In this document: positions 880 through 45,190 of the stretch, piece after piece
Position numbering within the stretch: the first letter of the stretch is position 1
How the letters are laid out: every line of letters begins with the position of its first letter
DNA from: a virus
Taxonomy: Duplodnaviria > Heunggongvirae > Uroviricota > Caudoviricetes
Reading direction: 5' to 3' (one strand)
IMG/VR virus record: IMGVR_UViG_3300031134_000639
DNA: 64,000 nucleotides
Made by a program: the position numbers and the translations under genes
The notes under the pieces: model-generated
The model's database searches: none
The model's input: only the letters and a program-made list of their open reading frames with translations
Told to the model about the DNA's origin: nothing

Positions 880-880
880 A

Positions 881-15698: not shown

Positions 15699-15742
15699 GC
15701 AGAAGGGGTGTAACCATAATCTTGTGGTTACACCCCTTCTGC
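15699..15742. terminator. Hairpin gcagaaggggtgtaacca-taatcttg-tggttacaccccttctgc followed by ttttg
   Basis: 18-bp perfect inverted repeat plus T-tract. Confidence 0.7.
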
Positions 15743-15758
15743 TTTTGTATGCAAAGTC

Positions 15759-18061: not shown

Positions 18062-18103
18062 ATTGGCCTTAGACTAACAGCTTTTATTCTAGACCGTTGA
18101 AGT

Positions 18104-18682: not shown

Positions 18683-18729
18683 TTTTGAAGCTTACCAGAC
18701 TTTTCACTTTTTGCCCCTAAAAAGACACA

Positions 18730-18767
18730 AAAATGTGGCTCAAGCTAAGTTGCTTGAGCCACATTTT
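18730..18767. terminator. Hairpin aaaatgtggctcaagc-taagtt-gcttgagccacatttt
   Basis: 16-bp perfect inverted repeat with flanking A/T tracts on both sides. Confidence 0.65.
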
Positions 18768-18777
18768 TGCTTACAGC

Positions 18778-19686
18778 TTATTCGTCTTCAACCATCTGGA
18801 TGATCGTAATCTTTTTCCTCTTCGGGAATGCTGGGTTGAGGTAGTGAGACCCCTTTGGCCTACCATCAGGGTATGAGGATTTGAAAGTTACCTGACGTTT
18901 GCCGACAACAGTGAACTTGCTATCCCGGTTCAGTAGCACTTCGCGTTCTGCGTGGGTGACTGAACCGGAGAAATCTTCGCTTTTGTGTACAGGTACACCA
19001 TTGCGGGAGATAATTTCGTAGACAACACTTTCTTTGTCGCTGCCGTTGAAGCACAACATGAGGTCAGGGTCTAAGCTAGTGGACATGTACGACTTGTCAG
19101 TGAACGTGTCACCGACTTCAAGTTGTTTGATATCGTCATTAAGCTGTACTGTCCTGTATAGTCTGCGGGCATTATTCTCAGGGCGTTTATATGCAGCGAA
19201 GACAGCATCCATTTCCTCAACACGGTTGATTGCCATTTTTTCGTATCTACGTTTCGCAGCGGGAACATCACCGAACATGCTAACAGGGTCATTAAAGCCA
19301 GTGTCAATATAGTTGCTAATACCTTTTTCGCCATCACGTAGGTACATGTTCAAATACTCATAGTTGTTGGAGTAGAAACGTACTGTGTCAACTAAATCTT
19401 CGCTGTAGTTGTCTTTGAAGTAGTCAGCTTCAGTGTCAAGCTGTTGAAGTTCAGGTGGCTTAACTGCGGGGTCAGCGTTGAAACCAGTGAGGACAGCCTC
19501 TTTGCTTGGGGTTGCATCAGGGAAATGAGATGCAGGTACTTTGGATATAGCTTTCGCTATTGTCCTAGCTTTAGGCTCAACTAGGAGTGGCCCGAACTTT
19601 TTCTGGAGAGAATAGTAGAAGCCATGCTTTTTACATGTGGGGCCTGTGTAACATGTTGAACCGTCAGGCATTTTTGTTGCAGTCAT
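18778..19686 (-). CDS. Mono-ADP-ribosyltransferase (R-S-E/C3-like ART domain), divergent member, 302 aa
   Basis: C-terminal YRTVQL (Arg), SYMSTSL (STS) and AEREVLLNR (ExE), same catalytic signature as the 36-49 kb array. N-terminus has C-x5-C-x2-H (TCYTGPTCKKH), similar to the array leader. Confidence 0.65.
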   Translation of the reverse strand: MTATKMPDGSTCYTGPTCKKHGFYYSLQKKFGPLLVEPKARTIAKAISKVPASHFPDATPSKEAVLTGFNADPAVKPPELQQLDTEADYFKDNYSEDLVDTVRFYSNNYEYLNMYLRDGEKGISNYIDTGFNDPVSMFGDVPAAKRRYEKMAINRVEEMDAVFAAYKRPENNARRLYRTVQLNDDIKQLEVGDTFTDKSYMSTSLDPDLMLCFNGSDKESVVYEIISRNGVPVHKSEDFSGSVTHAEREVLLNRDSKFTVVGKRQVTFKSSYPDGRPKGSHYLNPAFPKRKKITIIQMVEDE

Positions 19687-19695: not shown

Positions 19696-20457
19696 CTAAC
19701 GAACTAGAACCCAACGAGTCTTAAGATATCCGTCTTCGTTCAGGCTACCCAGAAGAGGACTTTCACTACGTGTTGTCTCACGCAGATTGTCCATATCTTT
19801 TTTCAGCTGTAACCAAACTTTGAAGTCCCGGTTCTTGTTTTTCCCTTTACCTTGTTCGTCTTTCAAGATAACAGTCGGGGAATCCATCAAACCCTTGAGG
19901 GTAACTTTAACGATGAAGTATCCAAACGCTAAGAAGCGTAGTTGCACTTTCTCTAGCTCCGTCTTCGTTGGGGCAGGTTTACCTTTCTTAGTCTGCTTCT
20001 TCAGGTTTGGAGACACTGCGAAAATACTGTGTCGCAGAAGCTGATTGATCTCACTGCTGTACTTAGCTCCAGCCATATGAGTTAAGTCCCTGATAACTCC
20101 TTTTTCGCTGGCGAATGTGAGGTAGGGAACAGAGGCATACTTTTGGATCACAGAGCGAAGAAGTTTATGAGCAGGGGCAGCCCTGTCAGGTATTGTGTAT
20201 GTTTTATTAATAATGTTCTTGTACAAAACAACTTTCTGTCCCGCGTCAACACGGTCTAGCTCCTCCTGGAAAACGTCAAATAGTTCCAGGAGGGTTGGCA
20301 GAAGAACACGCCCTGGGTCCAAGATATTATCCAAGTCAAAAGCAAGCAGTTTGCTAAGGTACTCAAGTGGGAGGGTTTTGAGTTCATCAGGGTAAACATA
20401 TTCGTTGGACGACAAAACATGCTTTAGCACCTTGGGGTCTTTAAAGCCCTCTGTCAT
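19696..20457 (-). CDS. Hypothetical protein 253 aa
   Basis: ORF only. Confidence 0.4.
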   Translation of the reverse strand: MTEGFKDPKVLKHVLSSNEYVYPDELKTLPLEYLSKLLAFDLDNILDPGRVLLPTLLELFDVFQEELDRVDAGQKVVLYKNIINKTYTIPDRAAPAHKLLRSVIQKYASVPYLTFASEKGVIRDLTHMAGAKYSSEINQLLRHSIFAVSPNLKKQTKKGKPAPTKTELEKVQLRFLAFGYFIVKVTLKGLMDSPTVILKDEQGKGKNKNRDFKVWLQLKKDMDNLRETTRSESPLLGSLNEDGYLKTRWVLVR

Positions 20458-20526
20458 TTTTCCTCCATACGACTAGGTTAACAGGATATCATATGCTTTC
20501 CAAGTAATCAACTCAGCTAACCAATG

Positions 20527-21060
20527 TTATGCCTGTGTCAGTGTCCTAAGGAAGCTCTCCATAGTATCAAGGTCCTCTAGGGTTAGACCTGTGAGACTAT
20601 TTGGGGTGAGGAGGAGTCCTTCAGCGGTAGTATTGTTCTGCACTAGCTCGCCATGGTACCTGTGGGCATTGTCGTCAACCCAGATGAAAGGTAGAGGGTC
20701 CTGTGCTTGGTCTGCGATGATGGCAGCAGCTTTCCATGCTGTCCACTCAGCTTTGTCTTTAGCAGCCTTGTTCAAGGCAGCAGGTAGAACCCTGCCGTTG
20801 TCTAGACCTTCAAGATGAGCAGCAAGTTTGAGTACATGGCTAAACTCGTTCCATGTGCTTCCCCAGACAAGCTCCAGGCCGTACTTTTCTCGGAAGACTT
20901 CAATCATAGTCACAACAGTTGGTGAGTATGTGATGTGGTTCACGGGAGCCAGATGGTCGCTACCTTCGATAGGAATCTGGAAGCTTTTGATGCTCTTGTG
21001 GGTAGGCTCTTTGGCGTTAACTACTCCATCAAAATCAAAATACAGGCGAGCTTTAAACAT
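20527..21060 (-). CDS. HAD-like hydrolase/phosphatase (paralog of 8021..8605)
   Basis: YFDFDGVVNA, WGSTWNE and FIWVDDNA mirror motifs in 8021..8605. Confidence 0.45.
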   Translation of the reverse strand: MFKARLYFDFDGVVNAKEPTHKSIKSFQIPIEGSDHLAPVNHITYSPTVVTMIEVFREKYGLELVWGSTWNEFSHVLKLAAHLEGLDNGRVLPAALNKAAKDKAEWTAWKAAAIIADQAQDPLPFIWVDDNAHRYHGELVQNNTTAEGLLLTPNSLTGLTLEDLDTMESFLRTLTQA

Positions 21061-21113
21061 TGTTCATCTTTCTACTTGCTTTAAGTATAGCAGAAAGATG
21101 AGCTAGATGGTTG

Positions 21114-21575
21114 TCAAAGTCGCATGTATGTAGCCAGGAACGCTTCAGCTTCAATGATGTAGCGCTCTTCGCCTGCCTCATCAAAGTCGTTCTCAATAGC
21201 TGTAGCTATCATGCAGTTGGCTTTACCGCGTTGGATTTCTCCCCAGGGAGCATCAATTTCAATGTCTGTGTTGAAAGGGCTTGGGATAGCTCTGATTAAT
21301 CCGACAGCTTTCCACACTTGGTACTCTTGTGTTGACTCATAACGTTTGTTGAAAACGTCAGGCTTGAGAACATACTTTTCACCTGTGGGATTAGTCACAA
21401 GGTAGTCGCCAGGTTCAGCATCGTTGACAGTCTCAAGGAAGCCATCTGCGACAATGGTTTCAATTCTTGTTTTGCTGTTCATCCGCTCTGCTACCACGGT
21501 CCCAACTTTTGTGTAAACATATGAGTTGTTGAGGGCGTCAGTGATCTCTTGTGTGAGCAGGTCAACTTTGGTCAT
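21114..21575 (-). CDS. Hypothetical protein 153 aa
   Basis: ORF only. Confidence 0.4.
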   Translation of the reverse strand: MTKVDLLTQEITDALNNSYVYTKVGTVVAERMNSKTRIETIVADGFLETVNDAEPGDYLVTNPTGEKYVLKPDVFNKRYESTQEYQVWKAVGLIRAIPSPFNTDIEIDAPWGEIQRGKANCMIATAIENDFDEAGEERYIIEAEAFLATYMRL

Positions 21576-22203: not shown

Positions 22204-23043
22204 ATGTCAACAGCTACTGCAACCAAGTGCTCCAAACCTGCCGGTGAGCCATGCCGTCTGCATAATCCGCAGGGAACAGGCACAGTAGGCATCTCTCGTG
22301 AAAGCTTTATTAACGCGGGAGTCAGAGAGTTAGCTACTGCACGTAAAGAGCAGGTTCTGGCTGAGATGGTGCCAGCAGTTGAAGAAAGAAAAGACTTAGG
22401 CATGATGGGCCGCAGCGCTCAAGACAAACTTGTTCTAGCTGTGTTTGACGCTAGAGAAAATATGAACTTGAAAACTGACCCTAAGACAGGCAAGCAGACA
22501 GTGTCTGTTTACAGGTCAGGTGTACCGCAGGCTCCCAAGAAACGTGGTGTTGAAGGATTGTCTTACGCTAACGCTGATGAGCATGCGCCTGAAGGTCATC
22601 AGGACCGTACAACAGCTGTCTTTGCTTCCCCAACGTTATATGGCGTAACTAGATGGGTTGCTGGTAACGAAGGAATCATTGAAGACTTGAATGTTAGAGA
22701 GCTTCGTGTTGACCCTGATGAAGTTCGTGTCTACTCTGTTAACGCTTGGCAGCGGGCTTCAGCGAACTACTTTGATGGTGTTCCAGAGGAAACACATGCA
22801 AAAAACTACTGGGCGACAGGTATGACTTTGCGTGAGTATTACAAGAGGATGCACACTGACACTAAGTTTAACCCAACAGAGTGGGAGCTACTTATCAATG
22901 AGAGTCAACTTCAGGGTGTCAAAAACGTAGTGAACAAGAAAGTTGTTGAGGCAGCAGAAGCTGAGCATGAGTGGATGCCTGAGAGGGTAGCGAATGCTCT
23001 AAAGAAAGCCCGTAAGCACCTATCAAAGAAGGCTGCTGCTTAA
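22204..23043 (+). CDS. Hypothetical protein 279 aa with N-terminal Cys-x7-Cys-x2-His motif
   Basis: N-terminus KCSKPAGEPCRLHNP has the same C...C..H spacing class as the array leader; rest unknown. Confidence 0.45.
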   Translation: MSTATATKCSKPAGEPCRLHNPQGTGTVGISRESFINAGVRELATARKEQVLAEMVPAVEERKDLGMMGRSAQDKLVLAVFDARENMNLKTDPKTGKQTVSVYRSGVPQAPKKRGVEGLSYANADEHAPEGHQDRTTAVFASPTLYGVTRWVAGNEGIIEDLNVRELRVDPDEVRVYSVNAWQRASANYFDGVPEETHAKNYWATGMTLREYYKRMHTDTKFNPTEWELLINESQLQGVKNVVNKKVVEAAEAEHEWMPERVANALKKARKHLSKKAAA

Positions 23044-25938: not shown

Positions 25939-27411
25939 ATGTGCCAACCTCAATCAGAAGGCGGACGCCGTTGCAACGGTCACACACCATACGGTGTTGC
26001 TCGTCGTAATTTGCAAGCCCAAAAGCAATACCATGAGCACCGACTCACTGACAACCAGTTAACCGAGAAGCAGCGAGCTAAAAGTGAGAAAGGCTTAGAA
26101 GAAGCCGTTAACGGTCTCAACGAACTCTCTGAAGAGAAGAAAGCTCTAGGAACAGTCAAGCCGTACGTCATGAACTTGACTCCGAACACAGAGAAAGTAC
26201 TCAACCAGCTGGAAGCAGATGGTTTCACTCCCTACATTGTGGGAGGCTCAGTGCGTGACGTTATCATGGGCTTAGACTCAAAAGATGTTGACATTGAAGT
26301 GTACGGCGGTCAGCCTGAATCCATTGCGAAGTCTCTGAGAAAAATTGGTCACGTTGACGAGGTAGGAAAATCTTTTGGTGTGTTGAAGATTGCCATAGAC
26401 GGTGAAGACTTTGACGTTTCCCTTCCGCGAACTGATTCAAAGATTGGTGACGGGCACAAAGGGTTCTCAGTTGAGGTTAACCCTGACTTGAGTTTAGATG
26501 AAGCCACAGCTCGAAGAGATTACACAATCAACGCTTTGATGTACACTCATAGGCTAGGTTTCATCGTGGATAAGCACGGCGGACTTAAAGACCTTGAGAA
26601 TGGTCAGCTGCGTCACGTCTCGGAAGCTTTTGACGAAGACCCTCTGCGTGTTCTCCGTGGTGTTCAGATGGCATCCCGTTTTGATATGGAAATGCACCCT
26701 GACACGGTTGCTCGTGCACAGAAGCTTAAGTCATCCTTCAACGACTTAGCTACAGAGCGTGTAGCTATTGAGTTTGATAAGCTACATCTCAAAGGCAAGA
26801 ATGCCAGACGTGCATTCAAAGTTCTTCAGGCTACTGGTTGGGATTCTAACTTCCCTGGGTTAGCTGAGATTAATGATGAGAAGCTTCACACTGACTTGTC
26901 CAATGCTCACCATGTTGCTGACCGTGAGAGTCTAGACAACCAGGACAAGACTGTTCTAATCACGTCTATGATTACCTCTAAGATGAATCGCAAGGATCGT
27001 GAGAAGTTCCTAAAGTCAACTGTTATTGGTGAAAAAACACAGGGCATCATTCGTATCCTCAGTGAAACTAACTTACCAGAGAAGCAGGACTCTGCAAGCA
27101 TGCGTTTCTGGGCAGATGACCTAGGTAAAGTAAGTATCCGTAACTACAGTCACATGCTTGAAGCCCAAGGCCGAAAAGATGAAGCAAAAAGCTTGCTAGC
27201 TAAAGCTGAGGCAGTTGGTATTGCTGACCGTGCAGAAGCAGGAATGATTCAAGGTAGAGATGTTATAGCTCGCCATCCTGAAGTTAAAACAGGTCCTTGG
27301 TTAGGGAAAATGCTGAAAGCTGCGTTGCATGATCAGTACAATGAGAAGTTCAGAACACAGAAGCAGGCTGACCAGTGGTTAGCAGATAACATGCCTAAGT
27401 TCTACAACTGA
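25939..27411 (+). CDS. CCA-adding tRNA nucleotidyltransferase / poly(A) polymerase-family enzyme with N-terminal Cys/Arg-rich leader, 490 aa
   Basis: GFTPYIVGGSVRDVIMG...DVDIEVYGG (Pol-beta NT motif), RRDYTINALMY, plus HD-like C-terminal half. N-terminus MCQPQSEGGRRCNGH shares the array leader. Confidence 0.8.
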   Translation: MCQPQSEGGRRCNGHTPYGVARRNLQAQKQYHEHRLTDNQLTEKQRAKSEKGLEEAVNGLNELSEEKKALGTVKPYVMNLTPNTEKVLNQLEADGFTPYIVGGSVRDVIMGLDSKDVDIEVYGGQPESIAKSLRKIGHVDEVGKSFGVLKIAIDGEDFDVSLPRTDSKIGDGHKGFSVEVNPDLSLDEATARRDYTINALMYTHRLGFIVDKHGGLKDLENGQLRHVSEAFDEDPLRVLRGVQMASRFDMEMHPDTVARAQKLKSSFNDLATERVAIEFDKLHLKGKNARRAFKVLQATGWDSNFPGLAEINDEKLHTDLSNAHHVADRESLDNQDKTVLITSMITSKMNRKDREKFLKSTVIGEKTQGIIRILSETNLPEKQDSASMRFWADDLGKVSIRNYSHMLEAQGRKDEAKSLLAKAEAVGIADRAEAGMIQGRDVIARHPEVKTGPWLGKMLKAALHDQYNEKFRTQKQADQWLADNMPKFYN

Positions 27412-34008: not shown

Positions 34009-34752
34009 ATGTGTAGAAATAGACCCGGCCCACGCTGTACTGACCATTCCCTTCAGAGCATGAACCGTGCCAGTAGCAAACTTGCGCGCATAAAAGAAGA
34101 AGCAATGAAGCTCATTGAGCGTTTTAACACAGCAAAGCCTGGCTCAAAGACAGCAGAGAACCTGAAAGCTCGTATTGAAGCTAAACAGGATGAGCGCAGA
34201 CAGGCAGCACGAAAGTTTGAAGAAGAGAAGCTTGACTACCAGGCAACACCAGGTGGGCAGGAAGAGCTACGCGCAAAAATTAGTGATGAAGAAACAGACC
34301 CTGAAGAAGCTGAACGTCTGAAAGTTGATTTAGCCGCAGCTGAAGCACGTAGACAATGGCAGAATGACATGAACAAGAAAATTTGTCGTGCCATCCAAGA
34401 AGGCGGTGTCATTAGTGCTGTGCTCATGGTTGAAACAGAACGCCACCTACAGCATGAGCGTCTAGCTGAGATACAAGCTAAACTAATTGAAGCTCAGAAA
34501 GAGAAAGAGCACAACGAAAAAGAGTATAAGACTCCGTTGGGACGCCAGCCTTCAAACGCTATGAGACTGCGACGTAATATTAACCGTGCTCAAAAAACCA
34601 TATACTTCTTCCGTAAGCAGGAGCTACTTATCTCTCTGATGCGTGGAGACTTAGACAGTTACCTTAAACGCCAGATGAAGAGAAAGACTACTAACATGAG
34701 CCGAAAAGCGTTCATGGGTGGAGTCAATGTAGCTACTAAGCTCATCCGCTAA
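34009..34752 (+). CDS. Coiled-coil protein with the N-terminal Cys/Arg leader (MCRNRPGPRCTDH), 247 aa
   Basis: Leader motif plus long K/E/R-rich helical region; no ART domain. Confidence 0.5.
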   Translation: MCRNRPGPRCTDHSLQSMNRASSKLARIKEEAMKLIERFNTAKPGSKTAENLKARIEAKQDERRQAARKFEEEKLDYQATPGGQEELRAKISDEETDPEEAERLKVDLAAAEARRQWQNDMNKKICRAIQEGGVISAVLMVETERHLQHERLAEIQAKLIEAQKEKEHNEKEYKTPLGRQPSNAMRLRRNINRAQKTIYFFRKQELLISLMRGDLDSYLKRQMKRKTTNMSRKAFMGGVNVATKLIR

Positions 34753-34765: not shown

Positions 34766-35902
34766 TTGCTAAACCAGAAGCCATTATCAGCTGGGCAAGC
34801 TCGTGTTGACACAATAGAACACGTATGCTATTATTGTGATATTAGGTTTTATTATGAAAGTAGGCACAATTTGAGTGAAAAAGATTTAGCTGCTAAGCAG
34901 CGCGGAACCATCCTTGGTCTTGCCTACGGTGACGCCTGGGGATGGATTACTGAGTTCGCTAACTACAAGGAAACTCAGCGCGTTCGACCTGCCTTCCCAG
35001 CTGAAGCTATCGTCACTGACGACACTCAAATGTCCCTCTACGCGATGAACGCCATCCTTAATGATGTGTACCTGCGTAGCTCCAAGATTAAAGCTTTCGA
35101 CGCTGACCGCAGCGAAGCAAATGGTAACGCTGTGCGAATTGAGTTCGCTGAAGCGTTTATCAACTGGTACTACGACGAGGACAACACTCGCGCTCCTGGA
35201 GTGACCTGCATGGAGGCTCTGAAGAAGATTACGCTTCTTGACCTTGAGACTGGCCTTGAGGGAACCAACGAGTGGTCTAAGGGCTGCGGTGCTAACATGC
35301 GTAACCCATGGTTCGGCCTGCTTCCCTACGATGTTGACATGATTGCTGAGTTGAGCGTTATTCAGTCTTCAGTCACCCACAATAACCCTCTGGCTCTTTC
35401 TTCCTCAGCTATCACAGCGTTGGTCGTTCGCGGCCTTGTCAGCGGTGAGGTTACTCCCGGAGACAACAACGTTATGAACTACGCTATTGATATGACTGAG
35501 TACCTGATTCAGAATCCTTTTGATACACTCAACCTTGGTTACATGGATGGTCTGCTTCAGCTTAAAGAGTTCCTTATCGTCCAGAGGGATCTGACTCACG
35601 TACTTGATGACCTCGATGAGTCAACTGATATCTGTCACCTGTTCGGTGAAGGCAAGATTGCTGAGGAAGCACTCGCCCTCGCTATTGTTGCTGTTGACCG
35701 CTACCAGGATGATGTTATGAGCGGATACCGTCGTCTGGTTCACTCCTCAGGAGACACTGACAGTATCGCAGCTATCGCAGGTTCCTTCTTTGGCGCAGCG
35801 TACGGAGATAGTGTGTTCCCCACCGAATGGTTTGACCGTCTAGAGCCTCGCTACCAGAAAGAGCTATCCCTCGTTATCGGGGATGTGCAGGACCTGATCT
35901 AG
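34766..35902 (+). CDS. ADP-ribosylglycohydrolase (ARH/DraG-family); start uncertain (TTG at 34766 or TTG near 34873 preceded by GAAAGTAGG)
   Basis: ILGLAYGDAWGWITEF near the N-terminus, TDDTQMSLY, and C-terminal SGDTDSIAAIAGSFFGAAYG, all typical ARH metal-binding motifs. Confidence 0.7.
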   Translation: MLNQKPLSAGQARVDTIEHVCYYCDIRFYYESRHNLSEKDLAAKQRGTILGLAYGDAWGWITEFANYKETQRVRPAFPAEAIVTDDTQMSLYAMNAILNDVYLRSSKIKAFDADRSEANGNAVRIEFAEAFINWYYDEDNTRAPGVTCMEALKKITLLDLETGLEGTNEWSKGCGANMRNPWFGLLPYDVDMIAELSVIQSSVTHNNPLALSSSAITALVVRGLVSGEVTPGDNNVMNYAIDMTEYLIQNPFDTLNLGYMDGLLQLKEFLIVQRDLTHVLDDLDESTDICHLFGEGKIAEEALALAIVAVDRYQDDVMSGYRRLVHSSGDTDSIAAIAGSFFGAAYGDSVFPTEWFDRLEPRYQKELSLVIGDVQDLI

Positions 35903-36003: not shown

Positions 36004-36969
36004 ATGTGTCGTACTAAGAAGTCGGGTGGGCGTAGATGCCCTCAACACACGGATCCTGTAAAACATGCCGCATATAATGCTCGTAGGCGAGAACTGTACG
36101 CCGAAAAGAAAGACTCTACAAAAGTTGAGTCTGAAGAATCAATAGTTATAGTAGACCATGATGATTCCGTAGACTATGGCTTCCTCCCATTAGACAAACC
36201 TCGTAAACCGTATAAGTTCTCCTCCAAGCTCGGTAAAACCTTTGCCAAAGATGCTAATGAGTTTGCTAAAGCAATTCAACCTGACTTTGATGTCGAACGT
36301 TGGAGACTCAGAAACATCTACCACGAAAACATTGCAACAGATGACCCAATCTACAATGAAGGTAGATTCGCTTTCCTTGAGTACACAGCGTCCAATTACG
36401 CTCTCATTGGTGTACGTTTGAACGGTAGAAACTTGAGTTCAAAAAGACATGACAATTTCAAGTTGACTAAAGACCAAGAAAATGAGCTTGACCGTAAGAT
36501 TGAGACACTTGATGAGCTTTTTACTAGAATAAGGCAGCCTTCGGAACCACGAACGCTGTATCGTGGCATGCAAGTGCCTGACACCGTAGAGCAAGAGAAC
36601 GTTGACAGCTGGCTAGAGAGTAAGTTCCCTGTAGGTGGTATTGTCTCGCAGAAGAATTATATGTCAACAAGTTTGAACCCTAAGATAGCAGCAGGTTTTT
36701 CCTACAGTGACCATAGTGACCCAAGAAAAGTAGCTCGTGCAGTCATTTTTGAGATAAGAACAACTGAGGGTGCTCCTCTGGGCCATGGAACATCCTCCTA
36801 CAAAGATATTGAAGCGGAAGTCCTCCTTCCACGCGACTTAAAACTGAAAGTTGTCAAACGAGAGACAAGAGCCTCACACACCATTGGATCTTTTTTGAAC
36901 CGAAAAAACCAAGTCAGCATCTCTACAGTAATTCAGTTAGTTGACGTAACAAATGAAGGAAAAATTTAA
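36004..36969 (+). CDS. ADP-ribosyltransferase paralog 1 (leader + variable region + R-S-E ART domain), 321 aa
   Basis: MCRTKKSGGRRCPQHTDPVKHAAYNARRRELYA; LYRGMQVP; YMSTSL; EAEVLLPRD; C-terminal VIQLVDVTNEG. Confidence 0.75.
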   Translation: MCRTKKSGGRRCPQHTDPVKHAAYNARRRELYAEKKDSTKVESEESIVIVDHDDSVDYGFLPLDKPRKPYKFSSKLGKTFAKDANEFAKAIQPDFDVERWRLRNIYHENIATDDPIYNEGRFAFLEYTASNYALIGVRLNGRNLSSKRHDNFKLTKDQENELDRKIETLDELFTRIRQPSEPRTLYRGMQVPDTVEQENVDSWLESKFPVGGIVSQKNYMSTSLNPKIAAGFSYSDHSDPRKVARAVIFEIRTTEGAPLGHGTSSYKDIEAEVLLPRDLKLKVVKRETRASHTIGSFLNRKNQVSISTVIQLVDVTNEGKI

Positions 36970-37856
36970 TGTGCCGCAGCAAAGAATTAGGCGGCAGGCG
37001 CTGTCCATCTCATACAGACCCAGCAAAACAGTCAGTCTATAATGCTCGCCGCCGCGAACTATATGCACAGCGTAAGCAGGCCCACAACATATCGTTTTTG
37101 AATTACAACACCGCCAAGCCATGGCTAAACGAAGACGATGATGCATACAAAACGTTTGTAGAAGAGGCTGATGCGTTTGCACGCAAGGTGAATCCCAACA
37201 TTAATACAACTCAATGGGATGATGATGAAATGATTTATATGGAACCAGTAACTGACGAGCAGGATGCTCTTATTCAATACAGCGGCGATGGCTATGAAAA
37301 TATCAATCAGTACCTTCGTGCCGGACAACCTAAAACTGATGTAGAACAAACTTTCAAGGTCAAGTTTGACGAATATCGCTCTGCGGCAGAAAACGCCAAT
37401 TTAGTAAAAAATATTGATTCAGCGTTGCTCAAAGCAATACCATCAGAAAAACCACGAGTACTTTATCGCTCTATTCGTGTGCCTCGCGGTGTACCATCTA
37501 GCCAGGCCTCACAATGGCTTAGAGAAAACTTCTCAGTAGGATCTGTCGTCAGCAACCCTGGTTACATGTCAGTTTCTTTGAACGCAGGGCTAGCCAACAG
37601 TATCTTTGGTGAAAGTAGTACGCAACAAACGGCAATCACCATGGAAATCTTAAGTAAAAAAGGCGCTCCGCTTGGAGCAGGCATGTCCAAAACAGCTTAC
37701 AGCGAAACTGAACTTCTTTTACCGCGTGACGTTAAACTAAAAGTGGTCTCTTTAGAAGAAGACGTAGATTACACAGTGATGTTCCGAAACAAAGAGAAAA
37801 CAACCAAACGCACTGTTATACGTCTCATAGACGAAAATGATGAAGGAGAAAACTGA
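36969..37856 (+). CDS. ADP-ribosyltransferase paralog 2, 295 aa
   Basis: MCRSKELGGRRCPSHTDP...; LYRSIRVP; YMSVSL; ETELLLPRD; start overlaps upstream stop (TAATG). Confidence 0.7.
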   Translation: MCRSKELGGRRCPSHTDPAKQSVYNARRRELYAQRKQAHNISFLNYNTAKPWLNEDDDAYKTFVEEADAFARKVNPNINTTQWDDDEMIYMEPVTDEQDALIQYSGDGYENINQYLRAGQPKTDVEQTFKVKFDEYRSAAENANLVKNIDSALLKAIPSEKPRVLYRSIRVPRGVPSSQASQWLRENFSVGSVVSNPGYMSVSLNAGLANSIFGESSTQQTAITMEILSKKGAPLGAGMSKTAYSETELLLPRDVKLKVVSLEEDVDYTVMFRNKEKTTKRTVIRLIDENDEGEN

Positions 37857-38731
37857 TGTGCAGACCCAAAGAGAATGGTGGGAGACGCTGTCCTCAACAC
37901 ACTGACCCTGTAAAACACGCCGCATATAACGCACGTCGTAGAGAACTGTACGCTGCTTCCAAAAAAGCGGACTCATCTTCTGCTCTGACTAGTCTTTTCC
38001 CTGAGATGGGTGTTCCCATACAACCACTAAATGAAAACGTACGTCTTGCGTTCATTGCTGATGCTCGTAAGCTGACTAAAGCGCTCCTGCCGGATTTTGA
38101 TGAAAACACCTGGGCGCTTACAGAGAGTGTTATAACCTCAGACCATCCTAAATATGCTAACCCTGCTAGCCATGAAAGCTTGCGTTACTATACAGATATT
38201 GGCTACACTCATCTTAGAGCTAATCTAGAAGGCAGAGGTTATGCTGCTCCTGAAACACTTGAATGGGAACATCGTGTCATAGACTCTATTGACAAAGCTT
38301 TCGAACAGGCATCCCCACCTGATGAGCCTCGCCTACTATATCGTGGTATGAGAATTCCTAGTGAACATGAGCCTGACCAGTTCATTAATGAGAACTTCCC
38401 TGTTGGAGGTGTTGTCAGCCAGAAGTCTTATATGTCAACAAGTCTGCTACCTTCGGTATCTAAGTCATTCGGGGATGGATTTGGGCACGGTGAAGAGCGA
38501 ATTGCTAGGTCAGTAGTTTTCCAGATTGTTAGCAAACAGGGTATAGCTCTGGGAAAAGGAACCTCCGAAATGTCGGACAGGGAAAAGGAAGTTCTGATGC
38601 CTCGTAATGCGAGATTCAAAGTAGTTAGCGTAGATAAAGGCGTTGACTTCAGCTATACTCCGTTTGGTTACCCTAATGAGAAACTGAAGCGCACGTTAAT
38701 TCGTTTGGTTGATGCGTCAGACGAAGAATAG
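37856..38731 (+). CDS. ADP-ribosyltransferase paralog 3, 291 aa
   Basis: MCRPKENGGRRCPQHTDP...; LYRGMRIP; YMSTSL; EKEVLMPRN; TGATG overlap. Confidence 0.75.
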   Translation: MCRPKENGGRRCPQHTDPVKHAAYNARRRELYAASKKADSSSALTSLFPEMGVPIQPLNENVRLAFIADARKLTKALLPDFDENTWALTESVITSDHPKYANPASHESLRYYTDIGYTHLRANLEGRGYAAPETLEWEHRVIDSIDKAFEQASPPDEPRLLYRGMRIPSEHEPDQFINENFPVGGVVSQKSYMSTSLLPSVSKSFGDGFGHGEERIARSVVFQIVSKQGIALGKGTSEMSDREKEVLMPRNARFKVVSVDKGVDFSYTPFGYPNEKLKRTLIRLVDASDEE

Positions 38732-38760
38732 ACTAAGTTCACTCCTATCAGGTTTAAGAC

Positions 38761-38782
38761 AAAACCGATAGATATGAGTAAT
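38761..38782 (+). promoter_or_regulatory. Variant motif AAAACCGATAGATATGAGTAAT (CCGATAG...TAAT with 7-nt insertion)
   Basis: Upstream of ART paralog 4. Confidence 0.35.
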
Positions 38783-38807
38783 ACGTTGTGTGACAAGAAA
38801 GAACTTC

Positions 38808-39698
38808 ATGTGTAGACCTAAAGAGTTGGGCGGCAGACGCTGTCCTCAGCATACCGACCCAGTAAAACACGAAGCTTACAACGCCCGTCGCCGCGAACTA
38901 TACGCAGAATCCAAAAAAGTAAGCTCTTCATCTAACCCACTTGACCTCTTCCCTAAAATGGGTGCTGTCATAGGAGCCTTAGACGAAAGTGTGCGTCTAA
39001 CTTTTTTATCTGATGCCCGTAAGTTGACCAAATCACTGATGCCAGATTTTGATGAAGAGCAGTGGAAGGACACAGAAGACGTTATTAGTCCAAGTAACCC
39101 AAAATATATCAACCCCACAAATCATGACGCTCTAAGATACTACACAGAACTAGGCTTCATCACTCTCAGAAATCATTTAGAGCAAAATGATGAGGCTCCT
39201 ACTGAAAATAAAGACTGGCATGACCGCGTTGTATCAGCAATAGACAGCGCTTTTGAACAAGCGGACCCACCAGAAGAACCTCGCCTGCTTTATCGTGGTA
39301 TGAGAATCAGACAAAACCATGCAGACAAGGATAGCATCAGCAAATACGTTGCTGACAACTTCCCTGTGGGAGGAGTAATCAGTCAGAAAAACTACATGTC
39401 AACAAGTTTAAGCCCTTCAGTTTCAACTTCATTTGGTGATGGTTTTGGTGGCACTCCAGAAGAGCGTGACTCCAGGTCTGTACTCTTTCAGATTGTCAGC
39501 AAGCAGGGTATTGCTTTAGGTAAAGGAACCTCTGACATGGGCGACAGAGAGAAAGAAGTCCTGATGCCGCGCAACGCTCGTTTTAAAGTTGTTAGTGTAG
39601 ATGAAGGAGCAGATTTCAACTACAATATTTACGGTGACACACCTGTTGAGCTTAAGCGTACTATAATTCGTTTGGTTGATGTGTCGGACGAAGACTGA
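38808..39698 (+). CDS. ADP-ribosyltransferase paralog 4, ~296 aa
   Basis: Start chosen at MCRPKELGGRRCPQHTDP to match paralogs (the ORF track begins 6 codons earlier). LYRGMRIR; YMSTSL; EKEVLMPRN; close paralog of gene 3. Confidence 0.75.
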   Translation: MCRPKELGGRRCPQHTDPVKHEAYNARRRELYAESKKVSSSSNPLDLFPKMGAVIGALDESVRLTFLSDARKLTKSLMPDFDEEQWKDTEDVISPSNPKYINPTNHDALRYYTELGFITLRNHLEQNDEAPTENKDWHDRVVSAIDSAFEQADPPEEPRLLYRGMRIRQNHADKDSISKYVADNFPVGGVISQKNYMSTSLSPSVSTSFGDGFGGTPEERDSRSVLFQIVSKQGIALGKGTSDMGDREKEVLMPRNARFKVVSVDEGADFNYNIYGDTPVELKRTIIRLVDVSDED

Positions 39699-39735
39699 TA
39701 ATAGGTCCAGATAAACCGGTGTCCCCTTAAGATAG

Positions 39736-39750
39736 AAAACCGATAGTAAT
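39736..39750 (+). promoter_or_regulatory. AAAACCGATAGTAAT motif, 34 nt upstream of ART paralog 5
   Basis: Recurring motif. Confidence 0.5.
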
Positions 39751-39779
39751 AATTGGAGTAAACATCTTTTGGAGATAGC

Positions 39780-40634
39780 ATGTGCCGTAGCAAGGAGTTG
39801 GGTGGGCGTCGTTGCCCTCAATACACCGACCCTGCAAAGCGTGCCGCATATAATGCTCGTCGTAGAGAACTATACGCTAACCGGAAAAAAGGTCAGCAAG
39901 TAGACTATATCCCTCTAGACCAGCCTAGACACAAGTTCCATGAAAGCGACTCACCTGAGTGGCAGCGTTATAAGAAGGAAGCTAAAGCCTTCAAAGAAAA
40001 ACTTTCTGCTTTAGAGGGCTGGAAGACCTATAAGAAGAGGTTGCACGATTACACAGACTTTGAGTACATCAACATACGTATCTTCCTAAATGGCTATGAC
40101 GCCACCGACATTAAAGCTAGCCCTATGTCATATGACCAAAAAGAGCAGAAAACGATTGCTAAGAGCATCAAGGTTTTAGATGAGGTTCTAACTCTTGCTG
40201 ATAAACCAGATGAGCCTAGACTTCTCTACCGTGCGATGATGGTTCCTTTTAGCATCAAAGACAAGCAGATGGAAGGTTGGATGAGAGAGAACTTCCCAGT
40301 CGGTGGTGTTGTAAGTCAACTGTCTTATATGTCCACCTCTCATGACCCACACAGGCTAATCAATAACTTCGGTGGAGTACGTAACCAGCATAGAGCTATC
40401 ATGTTTGAGATAATTAGCAAACAAGGAGCCGTATTAGGCAACGGAACATCCGAGTATGGTTCTTTAGAATCAGAAGTGCTTATGCCTAGGGAGGCTAAGT
40501 TCAAAATAGTTTCAGTTGATGAAAACGTAGACTATCAAGTATTTGCTCAAGACGAGAACAACGGTGAAGGATCCATGAGTAGTGTCAAAAGAACAGTCAT
40601 CCGCCTAATGGACGTAGACGGGGAGGATAGCTAA
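39780..40634 (+). CDS. ADP-ribosyltransferase paralog 5, 284 aa
   Basis: MCRSKELGGRRCPQYTDP; LYRAMMVP; YMSTSH; ESEVLMPRE. Confidence 0.7.
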   Translation: MCRSKELGGRRCPQYTDPAKRAAYNARRRELYANRKKGQQVDYIPLDQPRHKFHESDSPEWQRYKKEAKAFKEKLSALEGWKTYKKRLHDYTDFEYINIRIFLNGYDATDIKASPMSYDQKEQKTIAKSIKVLDEVLTLADKPDEPRLLYRAMMVPFSIKDKQMEGWMRENFPVGGVVSQLSYMSTSHDPHRLINNFGGVRNQHRAIMFEIISKQGAVLGNGTSEYGSLESEVLMPREAKFKIVSVDENVDYQVFAQDENNGEGSMSSVKRTVIRLMDVDGEDS

Positions 40635-41584
40635 TGTGTCGTACTAAAGAATTGGGTGGGCGTCGTTGCCCTCAGCACACTGACCCTGTGAAACATGCTG
40701 CGTACAATGCACGTCGTAGAGAGCTATATGCAGCTCAAAAAAGCATTATCAAAAATGATGACCAAGCTTCTTTAGAGTCTCGTTTCCTTGGGCCTGACCA
40801 GAGAAGAAAACCGGCTGGTGAGCAAGAACATCTTAGCTTTGTAAAAGATACAGAAACGTACCGCGATAGTTTGGCAGAGTACGAGAAGACCACCTACTCC
40901 AACGACTATGCTGAGTGGAGAGCCAGCCCAAAGAAAACTGACCAGTGGGGTGGCTCACCTCGTGCTGCCCTCAGACACTATACGGAGATGGGCTACAGTG
41001 ATGTACGCAACTACCTGAACGGTTTCAGCATGGAAGTGTACCGTGACGAAGACGAAGCGCAGAAAGCTGGTGTGGAAGTGAAACCGCAGGACAACGCTGA
41101 CATGGCAGGCTTTGTTCGCATGATGGACAAAGTAATTTCTCTTGCCCCCAAACCTGCGGAACCACGCATGCTGTACCGTGGAATTGACCCACCTTCTACC
41201 GCTATGGGTAAAGAGGCTGAATGGCTTAAAGAGAAGTTCCCCATTGGAGGAATAGTAAGCCAGAAATCCTACATGTCTACAAGCTTAGAACCCTCTATAG
41301 CTGCTGGAAGCTTTAGCCTCACAGAGAACTCTGTTGTTATGGAAATTCTTTCTAAAGAAGGTGCAGCCCTTGGTGTAGGCCAGTCAACATGGGGTCTTCA
41401 GGAAAGTGAGGTCGTCTTACCACGCGATGCCAAACTTAAAGTTGTCGCAGTGTACCAGGACGTAAAATACGGTTACACTAAAGTCACAAGAGAAATGGAC
41501 GGCGAAGTTCTAGCAGAAAAAGATGCTGAAGACAAAAGAACAATCATCCAGGTAATCCATGTTACAGATGAGGATGAAAGCTAA
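40634..41584 (+). CDS. ADP-ribosyltransferase paralog 6, 316 aa
   Basis: MCRTKELGGRRCPQHTDP; LYRGIDPP; YMSTSL; ESEVVLPRD; TAATG overlap. Confidence 0.75.
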   Translation: MCRTKELGGRRCPQHTDPVKHAAYNARRRELYAAQKSIIKNDDQASLESRFLGPDQRRKPAGEQEHLSFVKDTETYRDSLAEYEKTTYSNDYAEWRASPKKTDQWGGSPRAALRHYTEMGYSDVRNYLNGFSMEVYRDEDEAQKAGVEVKPQDNADMAGFVRMMDKVISLAPKPAEPRMLYRGIDPPSTAMGKEAEWLKEKFPIGGIVSQKSYMSTSLEPSIAAGSFSLTENSVVMEILSKEGAALGVGQSTWGLQESEVVLPRDAKLKVVAVYQDVKYGYTKVTREMDGEVLAEKDAEDKRTIIQVIHVTDEDES

Positions 41585-42450
41585 TGTGCCGCCCTAAAGA
41601 ATTGGGCGGGCGTCGTTGCCCTCGACACACTGACCCTGTAAAGCATGCTGCATATAACGCCCGCCGCAGAGAGCTATATGCAGCATCCAAAAATACAAGT
41701 TCTCTGCCTAGCCCGGTTGAGCTTTCTTCTGCCACACAGTATGAACATTTGTTTGTACTTGAGGATAAAAACACGGTTGAAACAATTGAAAAAACGTTCA
41801 AAGGAAGACTTGGATACATAGCGGAAGGTAACGCTCTATATGATGCTCTACAGGAGCAGGATGACTCTGAGAAACTAAGAAAATCTTTGCTTTACTACAC
41901 ATCTCACGGTTATACAGACTTGCGTAAATACTTGAATGCTTCCTCTGAAGACAAAGAAGACTTTGACGATGAAGCTATGGACGACTTAGTTAATGATTTA
42001 GACAAATCAATCAGCTTAGCTGAGACCAAAAGAGAATATAGAGCAGTCTATCGTGGAATCAGAGTCGACGAAACAGTAACTGGCGAGAAAAGCTTTGACG
42101 TGTGGCTGCATGAGGCATTCCCTATTGACGGTGTAGTATCGCAGAAAAGCTATATGTCAACAAGTTTGTCTCCTGCTAAAGCAATAAACATATTCGGCTT
42201 TGGTTCTGTCACAGAGTCACTACTTTTTGAGATAGTCACAAAAAGAGGGGCCGCTTTAAATGAGAAGACCTCTGTTATGGGTACAAAAGAGTATGAGATT
42301 TTGCTACCAAGGGAAGCTAAATTTAGGGTCGTGAATGTTCAAAAAGATATTACTCTAAAACTGCATTCTTCTCCTGGCGATAACGCTTTAGTTCACCCAA
42401 TTCAAAAGACTGTTGTCCAGCTAATTGATGTAACTGATGAGGAAAGCTGA
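41584..42450 (+). CDS. ADP-ribosyltransferase paralog 7, 288 aa
   Basis: MCRPKELGGRRCPRHTDP; VYRGIRVD; YMSTSL; EYEILLPRE. Confidence 0.75.
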   Translation: MCRPKELGGRRCPRHTDPVKHAAYNARRRELYAASKNTSSLPSPVELSSATQYEHLFVLEDKNTVETIEKTFKGRLGYIAEGNALYDALQEQDDSEKLRKSLLYYTSHGYTDLRKYLNASSEDKEDFDDEAMDDLVNDLDKSISLAETKREYRAVYRGIRVDETVTGEKSFDVWLHEAFPIDGVVSQKSYMSTSLSPAKAINIFGFGSVTESLLFEIVTKRGAALNEKTSVMGTKEYEILLPREAKFRVVNVQKDITLKLHSSPGDNALVHPIQKTVVQLIDVTDEES

Positions 42451-43283
42451 TGTGTCGCACTAAAGAACTTGGTGGGCGTCGTTGCCCGTCACACAGCAAC
42501 CCTCAGCTTGTCGCTGCTCGTAATGCCCAGAGACGACAGAAGTATGCAGCCAGTAAGAAATCAGCTGTTGCGCCTGCCCAACAGTATTCGTTTCAAGTGG
42601 ACGAAGACGAACTAGTTACTTCTGTAGACATGTCAGGAGATGTGTGGGACTCATACATCTCTGATGGCGAAAAGTTTCTTACCAAAATCCAGGAGAGTGA
42701 ACAAAAAGTTGAGATGATAGATGCTCTGCTTGAATACACTCACAAAGGCTACCGCCCTCTTAGGGATCATCTAAATAGGTCTGAAGAAGAGCAGGCAGGT
42801 AACGAGTACATGGTTGGGTTAACAAAAAACTTGGATGACGCTTTACATTTAGCTGAGCCACCAAGTGAGCCAAGGACGTTGTTCAGGGGGATGGAAATAC
42901 CAACAGATGAGGTGACTGATGATGAAATAGATGGCTGGTTGGACTCGCATTTTCCTGTAGACGGAGTCTTCTCCCAGAAGAGCTTCATGTCAACAACCTT
43001 GTCAATGTACAAAGCCGCTTACGTTTTTGGTAACGCTCGGGGTCCTAAAAGATCAGTCATCTTTGAGATCATTAGTAAGCAAGGTGCACCACTTGGAACA
43101 GGAACATCCGATTTAGATACAAAAGAGTTAGAGATTCTGATGCCACGTGAAGCCCGCTTCAAAGTGGTTGGCATAAAGAAGAACATTACTTTTGACCTTG
43201 CTGCTTCCTCTCACCCTGATGCATTTCCTGATGAAATAACTAGAACTATCATCCAAATTGTCGACGCTGAAGAAAAGAGCTAA
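42450..43283 (+). CDS. ADP-ribosyltransferase paralog 8, 277 aa
   Basis: MCRTKELGGRRCPSHSNP; LFRGMEIP; FMSTTL; ELEILMPRE. Confidence 0.7.
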   Translation: MCRTKELGGRRCPSHSNPQLVAARNAQRRQKYAASKKSAVAPAQQYSFQVDEDELVTSVDMSGDVWDSYISDGEKFLTKIQESEQKVEMIDALLEYTHKGYRPLRDHLNRSEEEQAGNEYMVGLTKNLDDALHLAEPPSEPRTLFRGMEIPTDEVTDDEIDGWLDSHFPVDGVFSQKSFMSTTLSMYKAAYVFGNARGPKRSVIFEIISKQGAPLGTGTSDLDTKELEILMPREARFKVVGIKKNITFDLAASSHPDAFPDEITRTIIQIVDAEEKS

Positions 43284-43285
43284 CC

Positions 43286-44203
43286 ATGTGTAGAACCGGT
43301 GGAAGACGATGCCCATCCCACAGCGACCCCACAATGGTTGCAGCACGTAATGCCCGCAGGCGAGAGCAGTACTCAAACAGAAATCAAGGGTACAGCACCA
43401 TGGTCGATGAAGAGAACCCTGTAGCTGGTATGTTGAACCATGCCAGTATGGGTTTGTACGGCAAAAAGTCAGCTGGTTTTACACCTTTAGATGAAGGATA
43501 CGAACCCTTTGATGAGTACAGTGAAGACTGGGAAGAATACAAGGAAGACGCTAAACTGTTCCTTAGGACACTACGAGGAGAGTACGGCAAAAAGTTTTAT
43601 GACCTGCAAACGTCTTTGTACAGTTACACTGCCGGTGACTACAACGACGTGCGTGACTACTTAAATGGCTACAGAATAAGAGCCACCTCTAAAGAAGAGA
43701 TGGAAAAACCTTTTGAGAAGAGAACCATAAAGATGGTTAAACGTATCATCTCTGACTTAGACGGTGCTCTCAAGCTAACTACCCCACCAGCATCACCTCG
43801 CAAAGTCTATCGTGGAATGCAGGTGCCTGTACGAGTTCCAGCTGAAGACGCTGCCACCTGGGTTGCAGAGAATTTCACTCCAGGGAAAGTTGTCTCCCAG
43901 AAGTCCTACATGTCAACAACTTTGAACCCTGCTAAAGCAAACTTCTTCTCAGGAACAAAAAATGGAGTCATTTTTGAAATCCTAACTAAAGAAGGCGCTG
44001 TTTTAGGTCAGGGAACATCACAGTACAACGAGATGGAAACAGAAGTCCTGATGCCTCGTGAAGCTAAATTCAAAGTAGTCAGTGTAACAGTTGATGCAGA
44101 AGTCAAACTGAAGCCATCTAAAGGCTATAACAGTCTAAATGGAGTGCAAACAACTAAGAAAACAATCATCCGTATGGTGGATGCAGGAGAGGAAAACAAC
44201 TGA
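43286..44203 (+). CDS. ADP-ribosyltransferase paralog 9 (short-leader subtype MCRTGGRRCPSH), 305 aa
   Basis: VYRGMQVP; YMSTTL; ETEVLMPRE. Confidence 0.75.
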   Translation: MCRTGGRRCPSHSDPTMVAARNARRREQYSNRNQGYSTMVDEENPVAGMLNHASMGLYGKKSAGFTPLDEGYEPFDEYSEDWEEYKEDAKLFLRTLRGEYGKKFYDLQTSLYSYTAGDYNDVRDYLNGYRIRATSKEEMEKPFEKRTIKMVKRIISDLDGALKLTTPPASPRKVYRGMQVPVRVPAEDAATWVAENFTPGKVVSQKSYMSTTLNPAKANFFSGTKNGVIFEILTKEGAVLGQGTSQYNEMETEVLMPREAKFKVVSVTVDAEVKLKPSKGYNSLNGVQTTKKTIIRMVDAGEENN

Positions 44204-45135: not shown

Positions 45136-45151
45136 TTTGGATGGGCAGTAG

Positions 45152-45164
45152 CCCCGATAGTAAT
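45152..45164 (+). promoter_or_regulatory. CCCCGATAGTAAT motif, 31 nt upstream of ART paralog 11
   Basis: Recurring motif. Confidence 0.5.
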
Positions 45165-45190
45165 AACTGGAATTAGACTTTGGAGTTAAC

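Follow-up and report, generated by a model that had tools for sequence, protein, structure and literature searches.

A divergent, leader-tagged ADP-ribosyltransferase encoded apart from a tandem array of its relatives on a large replicon

Introduction

The stretch of DNA considered here (64,000 nucleotides; IMG/VR virus record IMGVR_UViG_3300031134_000639, Caudoviricetes), referred to throughout as the window, encodes thirteen ADP-ribosyltransferases (ARTs). Twelve of these belong to one clade, and eleven of the twelve lie head to tail in a tandem array. The thirteenth, the focal ART, is encoded on the opposite strand at positions 18778-19686, and had been singled out in a sequence-only reading of the window as an additional, divergent ART. 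It is indeed an ART of the R-S-E class, and it belongs to a separate clade. Its N-terminus carries a short Cys/His leader, and such leaders are swappable N-terminal modules found on many unrelated enzyme domains. The features of the focal gene are as follows.

18778..19686, minus strand: focal R-S-E (ExE) mono-ADP-ribosyltransferase gene, from the list of open reading frames (ORFs).
19618..19671, minus strand: leader, residues 6-23, MPDGSTCYTGPTCKKHGF (C12, C18, H21).
19456..19593, minus strand: linker, residues 32-77, variable in length; from the model and from gaps and insertions among orthologs.
18904..19425, minus strand: ART catalytic domain, residues 88-261, comprising a helical lobe and a beta core; from the Pfam span, invariant columns and the SpvB alignment.
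18781..18819, minus strand: C-terminal strand and acidic tail RKKITIIQMVEDE, common to the array (TVIQLVD...E); from alignments, BLASTP and strand 290-301 of the model.
18727..18770, minus strand: intrinsic terminator with a 19-bp stem, a 6-nt loop and a T-run, straight after the stop codon; from a terminator scan and the sequence.

The catalytic domain

The focal ORF begins with ATG and encodes 302 amino acids. All four strings quoted in the sequence-only reading are found in this minus-strand protein, and their positions have been verified: YRTV (residues 177-180, nt 19147-19158) contains R178, SYMSTSL (residues 199-205, nt 19072-19092) contains S202 of the Ser-Thr-Ser motif, AEREVLLNR (residues 246-254, nt 18925-18951) contains E247-x-E249, and TCYTGPTCKKH holds C12, C18 and H21 in the spacing C-x5-C-x2-H. 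The catalytic motifs had been placed at the C-terminus; they are present, but at residues 177-254 of 302 they occupy the C-terminal half.

By family, fold and motifs alike, the focal protein is an ART of the R-S-E class with the C2/C3/VIP2/Certhrax fold. Pfam PF03496 (ADPrib_exo_Tox) recognises residues 88-261 far beyond chance: E is 9.7e-11, and the score of 41.8 bits clears the gathering threshold of 23.4. In an alignment of the window's ARTs, R178, S202, E247 and E249 are invariant columns in 13 of 13 proteins, which bears out the claim that the catalytic triad is the same as in the array. A comparison of the family profile with PDB sequences puts the Arg, Ser-Thr-Ser and Glu-x-Glu elements in register with YRG, FMSTS and GEAE of SpvB. 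The AlphaFold2 model, built from 20 sequences, has a mean predicted local distance difference test (pLDDT) score of 83.2 and a predicted template modelling score of 0.77, with low confidence limited to residues 1-50. The pLDDT is about 50 for residues 31-50, and residues 32-77 have no regular secondary structure except one 3-residue strand. Superposition on the ART fold was the check on which the original claim had been staked, and the claim stands: a Foldseek search of the PDB retrieves Vis, Certhrax, VahC, Plx2A, CDTa, Vip2, C3 and iota Ia, each with probability 1.0. Among phage protein families (PHROGs), the focal ART matches 26651 (E 3.8e-5), 802 (E 4.7e-4) and 595 (MuF-ART; E 2.2e-8), families which comprise phage ART toxins, MuF-ART and Alt-like proteins.

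The catalytic loop has the ExE rather than the QxE form (A-E-R-E-V, residues 246-250). The Glu-x-Glu form is established for arginine-specific enzymes of the R-S-E class, and by this analogy the loop predicts arginine specificity for the focal ART. As the catalytic part is a recognisable ADP-ribosyltransferase, it is nothing new in itself; the focal protein adds a member to a known family.

The gene is under purifying selection and is being maintained. Compared with four strain variants (about 98% DNA identity), it has 14 synonymous and 4 non-synonymous codon differences; the latter are conservative (T85I, N107S, N132S and T194S), and none of the four falls in the leader or the catalytic motifs.

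The Cys/His leader

The leader is under constraint in the focal protein's orthologs: MPDG(S/T)TCY(T/S)G(P/A)TCKKHGF is invariant among proteins that are only 41-50% identical overall. Across 39 distinct leader sequences the Cys, Gly, Cys and His are invariant, and the preceding Asp-Gly is nearly so. The AlphaFold2 model, which is of low confidence in this region, suggests a short hairpin followed by a helix from residue 16, with C12 where the hairpin ends and C18 and H21 in the opening turn of the helix.

In place of the array-type leader, MCRxKxxGGRRCPx(H/Y)(T/S)(D/N)P...NARRRxxY, the focal protein carries MPDGSTCYTGPTCKKHGF. The two types have the skeleton C...G-x-x-C-x-x-H in common. When focal-type and array-type N-termini alone are compared with hhalign, the match is weak (P 1.6e-3, probability 16%); with an intermediate class, MCYAKPGPRCTxH, added, it reaches P 2.9e-5 and probability 74%, against P 0.056 for a reversed-sequence control. 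The motifs are short, and kinship between the two leader types is suggestive. The description of the focal N-terminus as a variant of the array leader thus holds in so far as the skeleton is shared and leader classes are interchangeable (see the next section), but the direct focal-versus-array profile comparison is weak.

Pfam has no model that matches leader classes B, D, E or F, and in the focal protein nothing in Pfam matched N-terminal of residue 88. The array-type leader profile found no match among PDB sequences. A database search with a 42-aa array-leader profile yielded no more than 13 candidates, and the proteins of the window itself were not among them. No description of the leader, nor of ART expansions in Patescibacteria, was found in the literature.

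One leader, many cargos

In the window, the leader heads the 13 ARTs, a CCA-type tRNA nucleotidyltransferase and two other proteins. The three non-ART bearers are as follows.

25939..27411, plus strand: CCA-type tRNA nucleotidyltransferase (NCBIfam E 1e-52), with an N-terminal extension of about 80 aa that starts with the leader MCQPQSEGGRRCNGH.
22204..23043, plus strand: 279-aa non-ART protein with the leader CSKPAGEPCRLH, which also heads an ART in the related locus L005.
34009..34752, plus strand: 247-aa helical non-ART protein with the leader MCRNRPGPRCTDH.

The same holds beyond the window. When JGI metagenome contigs were scanned with a degenerate DNA pattern of the focal-type motif, 119 stretches matched, mostly by chance; 11 of them are true N-terminal leaders, four on ARTs and seven on non-ART proteins. 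Of the seven non-ART cargos, none of which matches the ART core, two are homologous proteins of about 300 aa ending in LVDGYHR, two are homologous proteins of about 140 aa, one is HD-like, one is GNAT-like and one is a partial ORF. When all leader-bearing ORFs of the window and its related loci (n=38) are scored with an ART hidden Markov model (HMM) built without the leader columns, 23 are ARTs and 15 are not.

Leaders and cargos are also exchanged. The ORFs at L034 2227-3117 (leader CRAKDPTHCWKH) and L040 3148-4086 (leader CYSGPTCRKH) have cargos that are 39% identical over 250 aa (E 1e-64) and belong to two leader classes. Leader classes are interchangeable because homologous cargo stands behind two non-array classes, A (the focal class) and B. 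The leader is a swappable N-terminal module on many unrelated enzyme domains. This modularity is the main addition to the original finding, and the leader-tagged, recombining architecture varies the theme of polymorphic effectors.

In the actinobacterium Gordonia otitidis (NZ_BAFB01000050.1; L012 7092-8111), a 339-aa non-ART protein starts with the array-type leader MCRLKEEGGRRCPSHSDP. Towards its C-terminus it matches the C-terminal extension that MuF-like minor capsid proteins have in Streptomyces, Arthrobacter and Microbacterium phages. That extension is a known site of delivered effector domains, ARTs included (PMC9503650). The Gordonia gene lies near a gene for a DnaG-type primase.

In a related genome, at L040 (801-1364, 1506-1863, 3148-5062 and 5160-5247), two leader-tagged non-ART genes stand between a transfer-messenger RNA (tmRNA; tag ANKSDLALAA) and a tRNA-Ser gene. 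The ORF just upstream of the tmRNA has what we take, by eye, to be an isochorismatase/PncA-like N-terminus.

Relation to the tandem array

The other twelve ARTs of the window are distributed as follows.

36004..46054, plus strand: tandem array of 11 ARTs of a different clade, 277-321 aa, head to tail.
48324..49181, plus strand: twelfth array-type ART, after a RadA-like gene.

All twelve have leaders of the form MCR(T/P/S)..GGRRCPx(H/Y). The focal protein is 19-26% identical to them in alignment, so that the term 'divergent' is apt. BLASTP relates the focal protein to 11 of the 12 (E 1.6e-12 to 6e-7), with some alignments reaching residues 300-302. In a separate model of one array member (pLDDT 80.4), the leader, linker, helical lobe, beta core and C-terminal hairpin follow one another in the order seen in the focal protein.

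Closer relatives of the focal protein lie elsewhere. Word-index searches find orthologs on other contigs with 33-46% identity over 91-99% of its length. An exhaustive profile search, which covered 1.84 billion metagenomic representatives, gives 846 relatives at E<=1e-3; of the clusters, 109 remain at E<=1e-10 and 23 at E<=1e-30. Among its top matches, about 25 are full-length, at roughly 300 aa, and most of these have the focal-type N-terminus. In a neighbour-joining tree of the catalytic domains, a distance tree without support values and so indicative only, the 12 array members group with other MCR..GGRRCPxH proteins, and the focal protein falls in a large, separate PDGTxC...CKKH clade; clades track leader type. 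The focal protein shows the hallmarks of its clade, namely PDG(T/S)xC-x2-G-x2-C-(K/R)(K/R)-H followed by an ART of about 300 aa that ends in a strand resembling (V/I)(V/I)Q(M/L/V)(V/E)E.

Alignment and phylogeny with the array members, proposed at the outset as a check, thus establish homology and shared catalytic residues, but they place the focal protein outside the array cluster, in a neighbour-joining tree only. The focal and array proteins are homologous, and the focal one is neither a copy nor a derivative of the array. Judged from the sequences, the split is an ancient paralogy between two clades, each kept in several genomes with its own leader, because both have their own leader types and separate positions in the tree and orthologs occur elsewhere. 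The suggested 'older duplication' stands in this sense of ancient paralogy; derivation from this particular array does not, as there are two separately conserved clades, each in many metagenomic genomes.

Five metagenomic proteins (P0030, P0031, P0039, P0040 and P0046), of 1,200-4,350 aa, have 5-10 ART domains each. The STS and ExE motifs are repeated in these domains and the Cys leaders are absent. These giant proteins look like fused counterparts of the tandem array.

Transcription unit and neighbours

The focal ART is the last gene of a four-gene unit on the minus strand, and its ATG lies 9 nt past the stop codon of the gene before it. The three upstream genes (19696..21575) are as follows.

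21114-21575, minus strand: PGDYG protein.
20527-21060, minus strand: HAD_SAK_2 protein.
19696-20457, minus strand: 253-aa protein without known function.

The array is on the opposite strand, within a long plus-strand block. The opposite strand, the position at the end of the unit and the strong terminator (19-bp stem, 18770-18727) together support transcription of the focal ART apart from the array, in keeping with the proposal that it is independently regulated. The further suggestion of a different expression class follows a phage-style framing, which is doubtful because the replicon spans at least 885 kb and has a cellular look.

These neighbours are not conserved beside the orthologs in L005 or L006: upstream of the ortholog lies an unrelated 364-aa ORF in L005 and a WGR-PARP protein in L006. 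No functional match was found for the focal gene's neighbours in PADLOC, among informative PHROGs or in Pfam/NCBIfam, and the PADLOC defence-system models matched neither the focal ART nor its neighbours, nor the hydrolase described below, nor one array member. A conserved partner gene was considered and rejected, since no neighbour is kept beside the orthologs; the focal ART behaves as a stand-alone gene. In L006 (8644-9951), the focal-family ART lies 49 nt downstream of the WGR-PARP protein and upstream of gyrB/gyrA.

Several further features lie close to the unit. A pair of paralogous membrane-protein genes (16091-16675 and 18104-18682), with no family match, flanks it. A strain variant (L002 11605-12096) has an insertion of about 480 bp relative to window positions 18072-18081, which adds a 173-aa ORF downstream or upstream neighbour to neither gene's loss: it sits between the gene for the 192-aa membrane protein and the adjoining one. 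Another hairpin that resembles a very strong terminator (15698-15743; 20-bp stem and T-run) follows a plus-strand gene that ends at 15689.

The ADP-ribosylglycohydrolase

The window contains one gene of the ADP-ribosylglycohydrolase (ARH) family.

34766..35902, plus strand: ARH of the DraG/ARH1/Tri1 family (Pfam PF03747, E 3.7e-43; PDB matches DraG, ARH1 and Tri1), immediately before the array; candidate for an eraser or for self-protection.

No ARH-family gene adjoins the focal ART, whose neighbours are the 253-aa protein and the 192-aa membrane protein; the only ARH is that at 34766-35902. This hydrolase has an N-terminal extension of about 46 aa with the string HVCYYC, outside the Pfam span (residues 47-353).

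The replicon

Proteins identical to the focal ART are encoded on contigs of 511, 663 and 885 kb (511,644, 663,129 and 885,359 bp), and other proteins of the window have identical copies on contigs of 624,949 and 884,011 bp. The largest phage reported as of 2026 has 735 kb (PMC13282480). The replicon is at least 885 kb, and is therefore larger than any reported phage.

Gene content gives a similar picture. Neither the 64-kb window with its flanks nor any of the related loci showed a capsid, portal, terminase or tail gene. The window itself encodes LigA, RadA, ThyX, a flotillin and a CCA enzyme, and ends with a NrdH-NrdI pair followed by an ORF that runs off the end; a full NrdE is present in the related locus L109. 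Related loci that bear leaders encode GyrB/GyrA, RecN, DnaB, thioredoxin reductase (TrxB) and a fatty-acid desaturase, as well as MFS, ABC and MacB/FtsX transporters, PnuC/NadR, type IV pilins and a PilB-like ATPase; they also include a full tmRNA and a tRNA.

In IMG/VR, a protein-pattern scan and two degenerate DNA scans yielded only chance matches, one of them in a portal gene and one in no real ORF. The GenBank phages (50,697 records) include no close relatives, only three tblastn matches with E 4e-5 to 5e-4 and about 26-27% identity, and the PLSDB plasmids include no meaningful ones. Among the GTDB species representatives there are no relatives of the focal family; the array alignment matched the leader only, in Gordonia otitidis.

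The top matches in BFVD raised a eukaryotic giant virus as a candidate source, which is rejected in view of the tmRNA, type IV pilins, DnaB, GyrAB, overlapping start and stop codons and T-run terminators. The source is probably an ultra-small bacterium, with the window part of its chromosome; a mobile element, such as a giant phage, is a lesser, if serious, candidate. The size, a GC content near 45%, the pilins, Gram-positive-type domains and the actinobacterial link would presumably fit Patescibacteria/Saccharibacteria.

Other features of the window

Several groups of paralogous genes lie outside the subjects treated above. A family of proteins of about 200 aa without a known domain occupies the minus strand at 310-13157, with at least 10 copies in the window (310-957, 881-1498, 1539-2099, 2099-2779, 2776-3378, 3381-3983, 5954-6565, 11092-11751, 11779-12447 and 12480-13157) and at least two more just upstream (L010 10602-13084). 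In L007 (11075-19456), twelve tandem ORFs of about 215 aa follow a focal-family ART; their assignment to the window's family of about 200 aa was rejected, as the HMM of that family matches none of the L007 ORFs. Three tandem paralogous ORFs of about 290 aa lie at 57991-60667, and one paralogous ORF pair each at 51716-53640 and 4102-5180; none of these has a family match.

Between the last tandem ART and the RadA-like gene, 841 bp (46055-46895) contain no convincing ORF and no Rfam match. The region 60000-64000, which contains the NrdH/NrdI genes and the terminal ORF, has a strong skew in base composition (0.25-0.35 for AT, down to -0.21 for GC).

Proposed role and alternatives

We consider it rather probable that the focal protein is a functional NAD+-dependent mono-ART, and a separate-clade member of a leader-tagged, polymorphic effector set. 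The clade to which it belongs is a sister of the array clade, kept in further genomes from one uncultivated group. The protein has four parts: a Cys-x5-Cys-x2-His leader of about 18 residues, a flexible linker of about 45 residues, the ART domain, and a C-terminal beta-strand with an acidic tail. The leader would direct the enzyme, whether out of the producer for delivery or to its substrate. With NAD+ as donor, the ART domain would attach ADP-ribose to arginine on a protein in another cell. For a producer that is a small-genome bacterium, this cell may be its partner or host; for a giant mobile element, it may be the host of that element. The DraG/ARH1-like hydrolase could erase arginine-ADP-ribose in the producer, as Tri1 does for Tre1.

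A wider proposal, which covers the whole leader-tagged set, is made tentatively and with more doubt than confidence. In it, the Cys-x(5-9)-Cys-x2-His leader would be an undescribed trafficking or substrate-addressing module that marks a large, recombining effector repertoire (ARTs, a nucleotidyltransferase, HD-like, GNAT-like and other proteins) in an uncultivated lineage with genomes of about 0.9 Mb. This lineage would most likely be an ultra-small bacterium, possibly an epibiotic one. Within the repertoire, the focal ART and the array would form two branches, with the single ARH as a general eraser.

Several points weigh against the effector reading. The leader lacks a hydrophobic stretch and resembles none of the known secretion signals, and its model is of low confidence. 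A CCA-adding enzyme is an odd cargo for an exported effector module and fits better with a leader that targets nucleic acids. The HD (E 6.5e-4) and GNAT (E 0.06) assignments fall short of Pfam thresholds. A canonical zinc site in the leader is uncertain, because there are only three obvious metal ligands and the His is not kept in all classes, being Tyr in 3 of the 12 array members and lacking in another class. No cognate immunity gene stands beside the focal ART, and the hydrolase is 15 kb off, next to the array. Lastly, nucleic acids or residues other than arginine are the substrates of some ExE or QxE ARTs.

The alternative that survives best, although unlikely, is that the replicon is a record-size megaphage. 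The focal ART would then modify host RNA polymerase or translation in the manner of Alt, ModA and ModB, timed apart from the array, and the leader would be a signal for capsid targeting or co-injection. The window is rich in genes without a family match and in paralog families, and it has genes for nucleotide metabolism and RNA repair of the type found in huge phages (ThyX, NT5C, NrdHI, NAD ligase, RNA ligase, CCA enzyme and HAD_SAK_2). The PHROG matches to phage ART toxin, MuF-ART and Alt-like families, matches in BFVD to phage ARTs, and the domain that the Gordonia leader protein shares with MuF-like C-termini also speak for a phage, and jumbo phages are known that encode many ARTs and package some of them (PMC9503650). 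What speaks against a phage is the replicon itself: the contigs of 511-885 kb are unequal in size and the largest exceeds the 735-kb maximum, the 64 kb, flanks and related loci have no virion gene, the related loci encode cellular-looking functions (GyrAB, DnaB, transporters, pilins, tmRNA), and neither IMG/VR nor the GenBank phages hold relatives.

A little less likely again is an account in which the leader is a zinc knuckle that binds nucleic acid and brings ART, CCA-adding, GNAT-like and HD-like enzymes to RNA or DNA, so that the focal ART would modify RNA, DNA or a bound protein. Known zinc-finger families were not matched (Pfam for the focal protein and classes B, D, E and F; the array-type profile against the PDB), and three ligands, with a His that is not kept in every class, also tell against a knuckle. 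In its favour are the predicted position of the Cys/Cys/His spacing at a hairpin-helix junction, strongly basic surroundings (CKKH, CRRH, GGRRCP...NARRRELYA) and the tRNA nucleotidyltransferase among the cargos. RNA- or DNA-modifying toxins with the ART fold exist (RhsP2, DarT, pierisin/Scabin), and the titles of published articles mention ART toxins acting on 23S rRNA and tRNA.

The presence of a DraG/ARH1-family ARH in the same region would also accord with an endogenous regulatory pair, in which ARTs and hydrolase reversibly tune the organism's own proteins as DraT and DraG do for nitrogenase. This is very improbable: 13 ARTs in 64 kb, as fast-diverging paralogs, point to conflict rather than housekeeping, the leader is common to many unrelated enzymes and recombines with its cargo, and the focal gene is not beside the hydrolase. 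That the focal ART is a decaying, non-functional relic of the ART expansion, as its low identity to the array might suggest, is scarcely credible, and a pseudogene is rejected, given a full-length ORF with every catalytic residue intact, conserved orthologs at 41-50% identity with an invariant leader, the excess of synonymous changes (14 against 4) and a high-confidence fold.

The analysis also corrects the tacit view of the window as phage DNA, and this changes the reading of the whole 13-ART expansion.

Comparison with known systems

The closest described enzymes are the C2/C3/VIP2-type ARTs (PF03496: Certhrax, Vis, C3bot/C3stau, Vip2, iota Ia, CDTa and SpvB), to which the focal protein is 12-22% identical. 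Unlike these, it has neither a signal peptide nor an adaptor domain for a binding component. It adds the Cys-x5-Cys-x2-His leader and the flexible linker, and its extra C-terminal strand and acidic tail are found only in the metagenomic relatives and the array.

In known ART-ARH pairs, such as Serratia Tre1-Tri1 (PDB 6drh/6dre) and Listeria Lmo0066 (PDB 8za7), toxin and hydrolase correspond one to one. Here, the hydrolase precedes an 11-gene array and is 15 kb from the focal gene, there is one hydrolase for 13 ARTs, and there is no PAAR, Rhs or LXG delivery domain.

With the Alt, ModA and ModB proteins of phage T4, the present system shares several ART paralogs per genome in separate transcription units and, by weak PHROG matches, a related ART domain. 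As for MuF-ART and polyvalent phage proteins, its cargo domains overlap with MuF-fused ones. In contrast to T4 Alt and the MuF proteins, the focal ART has no MuF or Alt N-terminal packaging region, and its replicon is probably not a phage.

Polymorphic toxin systems combine a conserved N-terminal trafficking module with a variable C-terminal toxin (Zhang et al. 2012, PMC3482391). The leader-tagged proteins resemble them in having a short conserved N-terminal module on unrelated C-terminal enzymes, and in the recombination of leaders and cargos. They differ in that no immunity gene follows each toxin and no associated secretion system was identified; the array genes abut without interleaved genes and a terminator follows the focal gene, which leaves no directly downstream immunity gene. 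The module is also much shorter, at about 18-35 residues, and matches no described trafficking domain. The new part is the packaging: a very short Cys/His N-terminal module, with no Pfam model or solved structure, that has stayed invariant while the remainder of the protein diverged by half, and that occurs on at least 8 unrelated cargo types and is exchanged between them. If this module is a delivery or addressing signal, all effectors of an uncultivated lineage with small genomes could be listed by scanning for a single motif, and how such organisms manipulate their partners would become directly testable.

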